64,000 nt of DNA from Spirochaetia bacterium (GTDB lineage: Bacteria > Spirochaetota > Spirochaetia > G963692905): positions 2,069,587 to 2,133,586 of the forward strand of contig OZ253446.1 in assembly GCA_965261245.1 (NCBI GenBank), read 5' to 3'. Below are positions 7,421 through 13,437 of the stretch, one piece after another (the first letter of the stretch is position 1; each line of letters starts with the position of its first letter). The position numbers were made by a program, and so were the translations under genes. The notes below the pieces were generated by a model that was not told the origin of the DNA, did no database searches, and was given only the letters and a program-made list of their open reading frames with translations.

Positions 7421-7494
7421 TGGGCCCACCAGGACTTGAACCTGGGACACCTTGATTATGAGTCAAGTGCTCTAACCAACTGAGCTATAGGCCC
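7421..7494 (-). tRNA. tRNA with CAT anticodon (elongator Met, or Ile2 if lysidine-modified)
   Basis: Cloverleaf GGGCCTATAGCTCAGTTGGTTAGAGCAC...CTCATAA...CCAGGTTCAAGTCCTGG...TGGGCCCA on minus strand; 7-bp acceptor stem, T-loop TTCAAGT, CCA not encoded. Confidence 0.8.
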
Positions 7495-7555
7495 CCCGTA
7501 TATTTATACCCCATGGGGGGCGGGGGGGTCAAGGGGGGTGTTTTGAGTAAGGTAT

Positions 7556-7740
7556 TAGAGGGGGGGCGCTGCCCCCCTCGCTGCATAATTTTTTAACGCC
7601 CATTTTTAACGGGCTTGCTTGCGCGCGCCCTAAATGGGCTAAAATTATTCCGCTACCCCCCGGCGCAGTTGTAGGGATATTGAGTCATGGGTAAGGGAGT
7701 GAAGCGTAATGTTCCCTCCGTACCCCCTCGCACTGATTAT
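7556..7740 (+). repeat. Modular intergenic repeat, head type 1 (GC hairpin + imperfect palindrome + CGCTACCCCCC..GTAAAG module)
   Basis: About 85% identical to 23655-23795 and to reverse complement of 33936-34032. Confidence 0.6.
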
Positions 7741-7743
7741 CGA

Positions 7744-8154
7744 TTAGCCAGCCGTGCCGTCAGCATTTAATATTTTCTTGGCTTCTGGTAATGATTTTAA
7801 TATTACCATGTGCGCATCAATTGCGCGGCGTTCCAATTGCGCTTTTTCTTTTTTGTCTTCTTCTGTCGAGATTAACATGCCCAGTATTGCGACTTCTAAT
7901 TCTCCTTTTAGCTCTTTTACTTTTTCTCTCAACGCTCCCATTTCGCCTTTAAATATTTTCTTGGCTTCTTGTACTGATTCTAGTATTACCGACAGTGCGG
8001 CGATTTCGCGTTTCAATTGCGCTTTTTCTTCTTCTGTTGTGGATTGGTTTAGTGGCGTTTTGTGTCCTGACCGCATTCCCATGCGTGTCAGTTCATTTTC
8101 TAATTTTTTGTTTAGTTCGCATAATTCAAGCGTTTCATTTTTTAAGTATCCCAT
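7744..8154 (-). CDS. Hypothetical coiled-coil protein with two internal ~27-aa repeats, in a low-GC segment
   Basis: Repeats EEKAQLKREIAALSVILESVQEAKKIF / KEKAQLERRAIDAHMVILKSLPEAKKIL; GGAG-like RBS before ATG at 8154; AT-rich relative to flanks. Confidence 0.4.
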   Translation of the reverse strand: MGYLKNETLELCELNKKLENELTRMGMRSGHKTPLNQSTTEEEKAQLKREIAALSVILESVQEAKKIFKGEMGALREKVKELKGELEVAILGMLISTEEDKKEKAQLERRAIDAHMVILKSLPEAKKILNADGTAG

Positions 8155-8342
8155 GTGTTTTTCTTTCTCCTTTTTCGTAGTTTGTATTATATCAGCCGGT
8201 GGCGTTGCGGGCAACGCCGCTCTCTGCACCCTGACCCTATAAATCACGTGCAGAGATACTAGAATAGCACGGCAAACCAGACCCTTGCGACTACTGCTAC
8301 TATTGTATCAATCGGCAATACTCGGCTACCCTGTTGCCGGCA

Positions 8343-11294: not shown

Positions 11295-11503
11295 ACCAAA
11301 CTATACTTCCGCCCTGCCTTACTGTCCTGCGCCGTCAACGCTGTAAAAACCTTGTGTATCCGCCAACGCCAACCCGGCAACCCATACGGCATGCGGGTAA
11401 TTCTGTTTTGCTGCTCTGCTGCAACACTCCCCGCCCCTGCGTTTGTAAATAGTACGACCACTATTACTGCAAGCATTACCGCATACATCACTTTTAATTT
11501 CAT
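11291..11503 (-). CDS. Small signal-peptide ORF (70 aa), possibly a truncated N-terminal remnant of the Cys-rich family
   Basis: N-terminus MKLKVMYAVMLAVIVVVLFTNAGAGS resembles the signal peptide of 8343-9554; no Cys repeats follow. Confidence 0.25.
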   Translation of the reverse strand: MKLKVMYAVMLAVIVVVLFTNAGAGSVAAEQQNRITRMPYGLPGWRWRIHKVFTALTAQDSKAGRKYSLV

Positions 11504-11519
11504 ATCGCATTATACCGAA

Positions 11520-11999
11520 TTATACGATTTTAATTTTGCTGATCACTGTATCTGCTTCTATGGCGCTGTCGTATTTGTTATTTTTCTTAAACTGTTTGTT
11601 GGTCTCTGGTTGCAACTTTCTAATGAATATGCGTTCTAAAGCATACACGCGGGCATATTCTTTTTCAAATATTCCGTTTTCAAAAACCAGGAATGCAATA
11701 TATGATTTTAAGAATTTTTTCCTTATCTCTTCATATCCTTTTGGCTCATCTCTAAATATCGGTTGCAGTCGATGCCCTATTGCCCGCAAGTGCAAACGTA
11801 CTGAAGTTGCTTTGCCTATATATAGCGGTTGTCCTTTTTTCGTGAAGTGAAAATATAACCCTCTTTCAAATCCGCCGGCAGGTATAATATCCTCGCCGTA
11901 GGTTAACAATCCCAGCGGTTTTTTTGACGTTTTTGATTTTATGATTTCGATAGCGTCTGATATTTTTTTGTTGGCAATTTCTTTGTAATCTATTCGCAT
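11520..11999 (-). CDS. GIY-YIG nuclease-like protein, in a low-GC segment
   Basis: GLY-x10-YIG spacing (GLYFHFTKKGQPLYIGKA) with downstream Arg and Glu residues; AT-rich coding sequence. Confidence 0.5.
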   Translation of the reverse strand: MRIDYKEIANKKISDAIEIIKSKTSKKPLGLLTYGEDIIPAGGFERGLYFHFTKKGQPLYIGKATSVRLHLRAIGHRLQPIFRDEPKGYEEIRKKFLKSYIAFLVFENGIFEKEYARVYALERIFIRKLQPETNKQFKKNNKYDSAIEADTVISKIKIV

Positions 12000-12273
12000 G
12001 ATTAAATAATACCTGCAACCGGCCGGAGTGTCTATACTATCAGCAAGGATATATATTCAACCACAAGCACAACACCCCACTATCCATGCACTCCATCCCC
12101 TGTATGGGAACTTCAAAACCACTAAGACAAAATAAAACGGCGGCCGCTATGCGGGGGCATAGACGACCGCCATTAAAAAATCACCCGCAACAGAAAATAA
12201 TTAATTCGGAAAAATATCATAGACCTGTCGCAGGCAATACCAGTATTATATCACCCGCCGGCATTTAATGCAA

Positions 12274-13437
12274 CCCCTTGTTTAACCTCGGTACATTCTG
12301 GACTCCGCACCCCTTCTCATTATTCTACGGCCCACCCCGATTATGCGTCAACCCACCCATGGGTGTTTGATACCCCAACGCCCCATGCGGCCGTACGTAG
12401 TTGTAGATATATTCCCACTCACGCACTAGCGACTGTAAGTCACTCGTCCGGTACGAGGGTACTGGGTAGCACTGCCAGAATTCCTGCCGCCACACTCCTT
12501 GTTGGCGCTCAACACAGCCGTTTAGCTTCGGAGACCGCGGGGGCAAGGTGTGGTGGTGTATTCCTTCTTCTGCCATCCATTCGTTCGCCTCTCCCCGGAA
12601 CTCGCCTCCCCCGTCTGTTTGCACACACCGGATAGGAAACGGTAATATCTCTTGTGCCCGTATGAGTAACGCACGGGCAGCTTTCGCAGTACATGCCGGA
12701 AATATATCGGTTACCGCAACGCGAGATACAACATCAATGCCAGTTATCTGCCACCCAGCAGGTCCCAGGTACAAGGAATCTACTTGCAGGATATCCCCAG
12801 GGGCGGTTGGTGTTTCTGGTTTCGGTTGCCGTATATATGGGGTTTTCCGTTTTTGCTTTCCCAGAAAATGCCCCCGTGCTGGTATGATTTTCTTCTCTCT
12901 GAGTAATACCGTAACCAGCCTATCTGCTTGTGAGAATGAGATGGTATACCCTTCCCGGGTAAGCATTACCGCAATCTTCCTCGCTCCAAACCCCGGGTGT
13001 TCAAGACGTAGCTCAATAAAGCGTGCGATTGCCTCAGGGGCAAGGGTAGTCACCCGTACCTGGTGCGGTCTCCGGGATCCGGTGATAAGCTTGCTCCATT
13101 GGTTATTCACGATATACCGTTTCCAGACAAACAATACCGATCGCGATACTCCCAGGAGGCTCGCACTAACGGCATACGGGACCCCGTGGGTTCTTCCTTC
13201 TTCGGCCCGGGATACCATACTGGTTTTATATTTTACCTCCGGATGATCACGGACATGTTCCGGGGTCTTAAATATTTTCGCACTCTGGTTTCTTTGGCGC
13301 GAAAAGATGTATACTTGTTGCACTGAGGCACCTCCTAATGGTTTATCTTGAGTACATTGTACTCTATTTTAGGGGTGCCTCTTTCTCTTTAAGAGATAGA
13401 AAGAAAGTCCAATATGTATCCGAGGTTATACACCCCC
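12274..13437 (-). mobile_element. IS481-like insertion sequence, copy 1
   Basis: Imperfect terminal inverted repeats CCCCTTGTTTAACCTCGG (12274-12291) and CCGAGGTTATACACCCCC (13420-13437) flank a DDE transposase ORF. Confidence 0.65.
12325..13323 (-). CDS. IS481-family DDE transposase (integrase-core type)
   Basis: N-terminal HTH-like region; DGGGEF, HHTLPPRSPKLNGCVERQ and YNYVRPHGALGYQTP motifs typical of retroviral-integrase-like transposases. Confidence 0.8.
   Translation of the reverse strand: MQQVYIFSRQRNQSAKIFKTPEHVRDHPEVKYKTSMVSRAEEGRTHGVPYAVSASLLGVSRSVLFVWKRYIVNNQWSKLITGSRRPHQVRVTTLAPEAIARFIELRLEHPGFGARKIAVMLTREGYTISFSQADRLVTVLLREKKIIPARGHFLGKQKRKTPYIRQPKPETPTAPGDILQVDSLYLGPAGWQITGIDVVSRVAVTDIFPACTAKAARALLIRAQEILPFPIRCVQTDGGGEFRGEANEWMAEEGIHHHTLPPRSPKLNGCVERQQGVWRQEFWQCYPVPSYRTSDLQSLVREWEYIYNYVRPHGALGYQTPMGGLTHNRGGP

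Follow-up and report, generated by a model that had tools for sequence, protein, structure and literature searches.

A strain-variable islet beside a tRNA-Met gene of an uncultured spirochete and IS481-like elements at promoter edges

Overview of the locus

The locus described here lies in a 64,000-bp stretch of DNA (the window), part of a 2.34-Mb contig of an uncultured spirochete (OZ253446.1). In it, an islet of low-GC protein genes is found between a tRNA-Met gene, with the adjoining gene for a glucose/sorbosone dehydrogenase (GSDH), and the gene for pyruvate kinase (PK). An IS481-like insertion sequence (IS), designated IS-A, adjoins the islet. The segment from the tRNA to the IS (7421-13437) had been proposed, from the sequence of the window alone, to be a single horizontally acquired islet (the original prediction). 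Comparison with contigs of the same species places the variable unit at 7667-12171, not at 7421-13437. The components that had been listed for the segment, a modular repeat next to tRNA-Met, a helical (coiled-coil) gene, Cys-rich repeat genes and a GIY-YIG-like gene, are all present; the modular repeat proves to be a dispersed element, here called module A.

The conspecific contigs, denoted by L numbers, all come from one metagenome of the European Nucleotide Archive (ERZ26694059) and were found by cluster look-ups with proteins at least 90% identical to those of the window. Four were retrieved, reached via exact matches of the sigma54 activator and of a 70-aa open reading frame (ORF) and via cluster representatives. 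Their core genes are 94-98% identical to those of the window. The coordinates of the features are collected in Table 1.

Table 1. Features of the tRNA-Met locus and related elements, in window coordinates unless a contig is named
Feature	Position	Strand	Basis or remark
tRNA-Met (anticodon CAT)	7420/7421-7494	minus	ARAGORN; Rfam tRNA, 73 bits
tRNA-Met promoter, TTGACC-18 nt-TATAAA	7503-7532	minus	read from sequence
Module A, palindromic dispersed repeat, ~110 nt	7559-7666	none	copies elsewhere in window and in other contigs
Strain-variable segment (islet proper), 4,505 bp, GC 0.469	7667-12171	minus	in window and L009; absent from L011; replaced in L038
Gene for all-helical protein, 136 aa	7744-8154	minus	AlphaFold2 (AF2) model, three long helices
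Cys-rich repeat protein, 403 aa	8343-9554	minus	Pfam DUF7107 and Dickkopf_N matches; 96-nt tandem repeats
Cys-rich repeat protein, 571 aa	9579-11294	minus	~32-aa repeats, typically 4 Cys; Pfam
70-aa ORF, signal-peptide-like N terminus	11291-11503	minus	identical protein called in L009/L010
Stand-alone GIY-YIG nuclease-domain protein, 159 aa	11520-11999	minus	motif, profile, AF2, Foldseek
Backbone promoter, TTGCAT-17 nt-TATAAT, near-consensus, pointing into islet	12273-12245	minus	read from sequence; target of IS-A
IS-A, IS481-like, 1,154 bp	12279-13432	minus	inverted repeats; transposase 12325-13323
Backbone intergenic DNA upstream of PK	13433-13790	none	holds second dispersed repeat and tandem repeat
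IS-B, relative of IS-A, 1,190 bp	55767-56956	minus	47 nt upstream of tRNA-Gly (55647-55719)
IS-C, third relative	L017 ~2127-2909		transposase 56% identical to that of IS-B

Composition and gene content of the islet

The GC content of the islet is 0.469, against 0.577 in the rest of the window. Sharp drops had been predicted within the segment, and we find GC falling to 0.39 at 7801-8200 and to about 0.375 at 11401-12000, with flanks of about 0.60 and a window mean of 0.568 (s.d. 0.067, 400-bp windows). At third codon positions (GC3), the islet genes have values of 0.36-0.41, flanking core genes 0.61-0.79 and paralogous Cys-rich genes elsewhere in the window 0.56-0.64.

The GIY-YIG gene is separated by 16 nt from the 70-aa ORF, which in turn overlaps the gene for the 571-aa Cys-rich protein by 4 nt, and 24 nt lie between the latter and the gene for the 403-aa protein. 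These tight junctions suggest that the genes from GIY-YIG to the 403-aa protein form a single operon. A promoter-like site (12034-12006) is located directly ahead of the GIY-YIG start codon. The backbone promoter that points into the islet lies further upstream; the gene that it drives is uncertain, because a terminator-like hairpin (12148-12136) comes next. The gene for the helical protein has a promoter-like site of its own, TTGCCC-17-TGaTATAAT at 8214-8186, as revealed by a promoter scan. The encoded protein contains an internal duplication of 61 aa (a direct repeat of 183 bp in the DNA), and profile searches gave no family match for it or for the 70-aa ORF.

Both Cys-rich proteins have a hydrophobic N terminus. 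The 403-aa protein contains 12 units of a repeat of about 32 aa, of which 11 are full, typically with four Cys each; its counterpart in L009 has 431 aa and differs in repeat copy number, and the 571-aa protein is 100% identical there. Judged by these sequence features, the two proteins are most likely disulfide-rich and secreted or exposed at the surface. Homologues of the 571-aa protein are rare, with only 10 found among 5.8 billion proteins, and those that could be traced belong to this genome or to the same metagenome sample. Cys-rich paralogues with DUF7107 modules and native GC are found in the window at 26074-28716, 43591-46041 and 47164-50133. The genes at 26.5-28.4 kb and 43.8-45.7 kb share 80% identity across 1.9 kb in inverted orientation, and a repeat protein at 59-2230 contains GLUG and thrombospondin type 3 repeats instead of DUF7107.

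Four haplotypes between the same flanks

Between tRNA-Met/GSDH and PK, four haplotypes are observed that differ in cargo. L009 contains the same gene run as the window between tRNA-Met and PK, with a different spacer and without the IS. L011 lacks 7667-12171 and has in its place an unrelated low-GC sequence of 1.05 kb in which the ORFs are tiny; it also holds a 96-bp IS-A-like remnant, and a copy of IS-B 44 nt upstream of tRNA-Met. In L038, the interval accommodates more than 14 kb of other cargo. It comprises genes for repeat-rich lipoproteins, two Cys-rich genes unlike those of the window and the modular repeat in a second copy; a further IS-A copy there is truncated and joined to a gene. 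The PK gene of L038 is on the same contig, beyond the stretch retrieved. The backbone shared around these cargoes comprises 7495-7666, 12172-12278 and 13433-13790. L011 retains 7495-7666, 12172-12277 and 13456-13623 of the window, and 12172-12277 is conserved in both L009 and L011.

The expectation of accessory DNA with atypical composition is thus borne out by a segment that is present, absent or replaced among conspecific contigs. Neither gene order nor composition is uniform among the relatives, and the segment is therefore accessory.

The core genes of the window and L009 differ by 2-6%, with 96 mismatches over the 1,812 bp of PK and 46 over the 1,250 bp of GSDH and the tRNA. Within the islet, 2,272 bp (9416-11687) show no mismatch at all between the two strains, and the same is true of 8146-8420. 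With a flank divergence of 4-5%, a mismatch-free tract of 2,272 bp is not a chance outcome, which indicates that the segment with the Cys-rich genes and the 70-aa ORF was recently exchanged between the two lineages.

This tract also bears on whether the islet could be a native, vertically inherited and fast-evolving surface-protein locus, in which low GC is gene-specific, L011 carries a simple deletion and nothing was imported. Such a locus would fit with the size of the native family of DUF7107/Dickkopf-like Cys-rich repeat proteins, which has paralogues in the window, with homologues essentially limited to this lineage, and with the low GC of a core gene, HisZ-HisG. However, the mismatch-free tract excludes vertical descent at equal rates, and the GC3 of the islet is about 0.2 below that of the native paralogues. 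Moreover, neither L011 nor L038 has a counterpart of the helical-protein gene or of the GIY-YIG gene, and the set of genes in L038 is wholly different. We therefore regard a purely native origin as doubtful.

Location of the islet upstream of the tRNA gene

The two tools used for tRNA detection agree on the predicted tRNA-Met, with one correction: the gene is on the minus strand, hence the islet is located on its 5' side. The 5' end (7494) faces the islet and the 3' end abuts GSDH, whose start codon (7417-7415, minus strand) is found 3 nt past the discriminator base, as had been noted before. The tRNA sequence is 100% identical in L009 and L011. The same tRNA-Met-GSDH spacing is present in a distant relative (L012, 8438-8442; MsrA 60% identity). 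So close to the tRNA, the GSDH start leaves no space for a ribosome-binding site. This arrangement suggests that tRNA-Met and GSDH are co-transcribed and that a near-leaderless GSDH mRNA would be freed by 3' processing of the tRNA.

The original prediction had seen in this locus the classic signature of horizontally acquired DNA. Read as a tRNA-linked genomic island, the locus would imply insertion by a tyrosine integrase into tRNA-Met, later decay, and an IS that marks the far end. The islet does resemble such islands in being tRNA-adjacent, atypical in GC and variably present among strains, with an IS nearby. In contrast to them, it lies on the wrong side of the tRNA, with the conserved GSDH gene at the 3' end. 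Profile searches of the islet ORFs (Pfam, NCBIfam, PHROGs and PADLOC) revealed no integrase or integrase remnant, nor any recombinase, relaxase, phage or defence family, and the sole rve protein is the IS transposase. A direct repeat of the tRNA 3' end had been suggested as a diagnostic; no tRNA-derived match of at least 10 nt, direct or inverted, exists in 7495-13800, and with it the att-type duplication of the tRNA end is missing. The presence of the whole islet without the IS in L009 further disagrees with an IS at its far end. An integrase-borne island is accordingly very improbable. What stands of the earlier view is that the DNA is accessory, atypical and, by the indication above, recently exchanged; the integrase mechanism and the proposed boundaries do not stand.

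IS-A is a later, simple insertion

The IS481-like element that had been predicted at 12274-13437 is found within 5 nt of these ends. IS-A is bordered by 13-nt terminal inverted repeats (TGTTTAACCTCGG/CCGAGGTTATACA), and its termini begin with 5'-TGT (TGTATAACCTC...GAGGTTAAACA), which, together with the target duplication, agrees with the IS481 family. Its transposase matches Pfam rve_3 and HTH_32. The best NCBIfam profile is IS481 (NF033577), with 147 bits for IS-A and 144 bits for IS-B, below the cut-off of 224, followed by IS3 with 65-71 bits. IS-A and IS-B resemble IS481 and ISEc18 in having a single DDE (rve) ORF within some 1.15-1.19 kb, ends of the form TGT...ACA and short duplications; their identity to annotated IS481 members is at most 34%, and their profile scores remain below the family threshold. 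A promoter-like sequence, TTGACG-18-TAGAAT (12322-12351, minus strand), is observed inside the right end of IS-A, directed outward toward the target promoter and the islet.

The empty site in L009 and L011 reads ...GCAACCCC|AACCC..., and the window reads CCCCT-IS-CCCCC. IS-A is thus a later, strain-specific simple insertion with a duplication of about 5 bp and is not part of the islet, and the idea that the IS bounds the islet has to be given up, since L009 has all of the islet and no IS.

IS-A copies at three sites (window, L018 and L019) are 100% identical, as are the full copies of IS-B at six sites (window, L011 7570-8759, L013, L014, L016 and L017). The 5-bp duplications are perfect at seven of these nine full copies; in IS-A of the window four of five positions agree, and L014 has none.

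The proximity of these elements raises the question of IS-driven mobilization, either as a composite transposon or through one-ended or adjacent transposition in which IS481-like elements take cargo along. IS-A does abut the region, IS-B has inserted 44 nt from tRNA-Met in L011, and the truncated IS-A copies at the cargo junctions of L011 and L038 amount to IS-associated deletions. Against this, the window has a single flanking IS copy and L009 none, the exact empty site and 5-bp duplication of IS-A mark a simple insertion, and the junction on the tRNA side coincides with the boundary of a module and not with the end of an IS. We consider transport of the cargo by IS elements unlikely.

The IS elements insert at the upstream edge of promoters

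The positions of IS-A, IS-B and IS-C follow a common rule, observed in 11 insertion events: directly beyond the transposase-distal end of the element and its 5-bp duplication comes the -35 hexamer of a complete sigma70-type promoter (TTGnnn, 17-18 nt, TAnnnT), and the orientation is the same throughout, with the element reading toward the promoter. At the nine full-copy sites, the -35 hexamers are TTGACC, TTGACC, TTGCGT, TAGCCG, TTGCAT, TTTACA, TTGCAT, TTGACA and TTGCTC, and the -10 hexamers, in the same order, TACGAT, TATAAA, GACAAT, TATAAT, TATAAT, TAGAAT, TATAAT, TAGTAT and TATAAT, with a spacer of 17 nt (18 at L011). The promoter scores at these sites are 7-10 of 12, where the background probability of a score of at least 9 is 0.0012. 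Multiplied together, the tail probabilities of the individual sites give 7e-28.

Most sites are followed by a co-oriented gene, tRNA or riboswitch-like leader. In L011, the CCCCC duplication of IS-B abuts the -35 hexamer of the tRNA-Met promoter, and in L017 IS-C abuts CAGTG-TAGACA-17-TATAAT ahead of a gene. A solo IS-end remnant in L016 occupies exactly the position of IS-B. The promoters pre-date the insertions, as seen from the empty sites in the window (tRNA-Met) and in L009 and L011 (IS-A site). IS-A adjoins the islet because the backbone promoter lies there, and IS copies are found near tRNA genes (44-47 nt upstream) because of the tRNA promoters, not because of island biology.

As an informal negative control, a scan of metagenomes of the Joint Genome Institute (JGI) for the shared IS end returned 18 chance matches, none of them with a transposase or a promoter-like flank. 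Distant IS481-family relatives (Allomeiothermus, Thermus and Rhodococcus plasmids) are present as single copies, whose IS ends are not definable. A literature search, itself incomplete, yielded no account of a bacterial IS that selects the -35 edge or the region upstream of tRNA genes, a faint hint that this choice of target is new for bacterial IS.

On balance, we regard IS-A, IS-B and IS-C as probable promoter-seeking transposons that integrate at the -35 edge of complete sigma70-type promoters. The apparent need for both hexamers at the proper spacing suggests that the transposase may recognize RNA polymerase bound at the promoter, or a DNA structure specific to promoters, rather than a simple sequence. 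For IS481 itself, the described target is NCTAGN; that of IS-A and IS-B differs from it in being the upstream edge of the -35 hexamer, in a fixed orientation. Yeast Ty3 and Dictyostelium TRE5-A are retrotransposons directed by RNA polymerase III (Pol III), which insert a short fixed distance upstream of transcription units that include tRNA genes. The spirochete elements likewise insert at a fixed short distance upstream and leave gene and promoter intact. Unlike Ty3 and TRE5-A, they are bacterial DDE elements at sigma70 promoters, and recruitment of their transposase by the transcription machinery would be a hypothetical parallel.

Dispersed modules at the breakpoints

L011 and L038 both leave the window sequence at exactly 7666, the end of module A, and the next ~40 nt are common to the two contigs. 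Likewise, the window and L009 diverge right past another copy of the modular repeat, near 23861. Besides the copy next to tRNA-Met, the repeat has copies at 23658, 33928 and 46920 in the window; module A itself is found at 23658-23809 and 33928-34033, and in L038 (two copies), L039 and L009. From these positions, the 110-nt palindromic module is a possible marker of the junctions for exchange of low-GC cassettes, the weaker of the two novelties of the locus.

The predicted fold of module A consists of a G/C hairpin with one compensatory pair and a long hairpin. As an RNA gene it was rejected: the fold is not better than that of shuffled sequences (z = -1.4), and the copies are too alike for covariation. 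A search of 7000-14000 against Rfam returned the tRNA and two sub-threshold matches only, none of them for the module. Integron-like cassettes, with the module as attC, were discarded as well, since no integrase is present and the junctions have no conserved core site.

Neisserial intergenic mosaic elements and the repetitive extragenic palindromes and bacterial interspersed mosaic elements (REP/BIME) are dispersed, hairpin-forming intergenic palindromic repeats at rearrangement sites. Module A is similar to them in being modular, dispersed, hairpin-forming and placed where rearrangements occur; it has no sequence relation to them, and its proposed role in recombination derives solely from the positions of the breakpoints.

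A second strain-variable low-GC islet (23658-26034) starts directly after a copy of the modular repeat. In the window, it contains two small membrane-protein genes and the gene for an FRG/TPR protein; in L009 (17979-18536 onward), four tandem module units are followed by fn3-type genes. The backbone upstream of PK holds a different dispersed repeat (13465-13684), with self-BLAST matches at 43084-43303 and 28889-29055. Inside it, at 13628-13707, lies a 21-bp tandem repeat with 3.8 copies (Tandem Repeats Finder), represented by one copy in L009 and none in L011.

The GIY-YIG protein

The first gene of the islet run encodes a small protein with the motifs G47-L-Y49 and Y60-I-G62, together with R72, E122 and N134. 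In an alignment of six sequences, three of them distant homologues, G47, Y49, I61-G62-K63, R72, E122 and N134 are invariant, and L48 and Y60 vary. A profile of the protein matches the GIY-YIG domain of UvrC in the PDB (1yd6, E=3e-4). The AF2 model, with a predicted local distance difference test score (pLDDT) of 83.8, retrieves the N-terminal GIY-YIG domains of UvrC as top Foldseek matches (probability 1.0; template modelling (TM) score 0.64-0.69 relative to the target), followed by the nucleases PD-T4-3, I-TevI and EndoII. Both the motifs and the alpha/beta fold thus assign the protein to the GIY-YIG family, with a predicted nuclease activity. It is nearly an orphan, with 15 matches among 1.8 billion representatives.

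A nuclease of this kind could spread by homing, in a manner likened to the Seg endonucleases of phage T4: the enzyme would cut islet-free alleles, and repair would copy its gene and the neighbours. The intact catalytic residues and the modelled fold, the leading position of this near-orphan gene and the recent conversion between strains in the adjacent DNA are compatible with such a process. Nevertheless, the mismatch-free tract includes no more than the final 168 bp of this gene, with 11 differences in the remainder; no DNA-binding domain was detected, the only addition to the nuclease domain being an N-terminal extension of 45 aa, and no cleavage site is known. Homing is consequently quite unlikely to account for the islet.

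Other features of the window and distant relatives

The fused HisZ-HisG gene (17500-19254) has a GC content of 0.45 in a genome of about 0.58, and the alleles of other strains are low as well. Compared with the L009 and L011 alleles, it shows 75% identity in DNA and 68% in protein, in contrast to about 98% for the flanking genes. This pattern suggests that a housekeeping gene has undergone allele replacement or is under diversifying selection.

Outside the species, the nearest PK has 56% identity, and a scan of a collection of genome contigs for PK yielded distant proteins only, with at most 41% identity. The distant relatives L007, L008 and L012 keep the PK-sigma54-His and the tRNA-Met-GSDH-MsrA blocks, but the two blocks are not adjacent. 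In L007 (3048-5100), a gene for an AAA_15/AAA_21 ATPase is located upstream of PK, followed by a 159-aa ORF without family match; the two may constitute a defence-type pair.

Discussion

We think it likely that the interval between tRNA-Met-GSDH-MsrA-SDR and PK is a gene-content hotspot, occupied by a replacement islet of the minimal-mobile-element type. In this strain, the interval holds a low-GC, minus-strand gene set as cargo, with the separately promoted helical-protein gene last. Cassette turnover would proceed by homologous recombination, for which the conserved flanks and dispersed intergenic modules would serve as anchors. We infer this route, with modules and flanking core genes as anchors, because L011 and L038 break at 7666 and the window and L009 diverge near 23861. 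Deletions beside IS copies would add to the remodelling of the site, as the truncated IS copies at the cargo junctions of L011 and L038 suggest, and IS-A arrived later, in this strain only, at a pre-existing backbone promoter. The cargo appears to be passed on among members of this lineage and its relatives, not acquired from a remote donor.

Minimal mobile elements have been defined in Neisseria (PMC3787668, crediting Saunders & Snyder 2002 and Snyder et al. 2007). Like them, the islet shows different content between the same flanks in the closest relatives and no genes for self-mobilization in the cargo. For the Neisseria elements, homologous recombination between flanking sequences is given as the means of exchange; at the present locus, the mismatch-free tract of 2,272 bp and the breakpoint common to L011 and L038 at 7666 would fit such a process. 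The islet differs from the Neisseria elements in its host, an uncultured spirochete, in a tRNA-side breakpoint at a dispersed 110-nt palindromic module and not inside flanking genes, and in the IS-associated deletions that would contribute to turnover.

Several observations weigh against this interpretation. Low GC is not confined to accessory DNA, HisZ-HisG having a GC of 0.45 in all strains. Three of the four haplotypes have members of the Cys-rich family at the locus, and this family is native to the lineage, so that divergence in place combined with deletion could explain part of the pattern, as a native locus would have it. The GIY-YIG gene, 97.7% identical between strains, falls for the most part outside the identical tract. 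Recombination at the modules derives from the positions of breakpoints and not from observed events, and the haplotypes number only four, from a single metagenome sample. Furthermore, the next relatives (PK 56%, MsrA 60% identity) are too distant to give the ancestral state, and tRNA-Met and PK are not adjacent in them.

With these points in mind, the replacement islet offers, in a little-studied spirochete lineage, a clean natural example of surface-protein cassette turnover at a fixed hotspot without island machinery, and it cautions that a tRNA, low GC and an IS do not by themselves imply integrase-mediated insertion. As a recombination-driven replacement islet it is of a kind already known; the unusual item at the locus is the targeting of promoter edges by the IS elements. 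If this targeting is confirmed, it would represent a novel mode of target selection among bacterial DDE transposons, nucleotide-precise at the upstream edge of promoters, and a bacterial counterpart of the Pol III-directed integration of Ty3 or TRE5. Elements of this type would avoid gene disruption and could rewire the upstream regulation of many genes at once, and they might be adapted for targeted insertion beside promoters.

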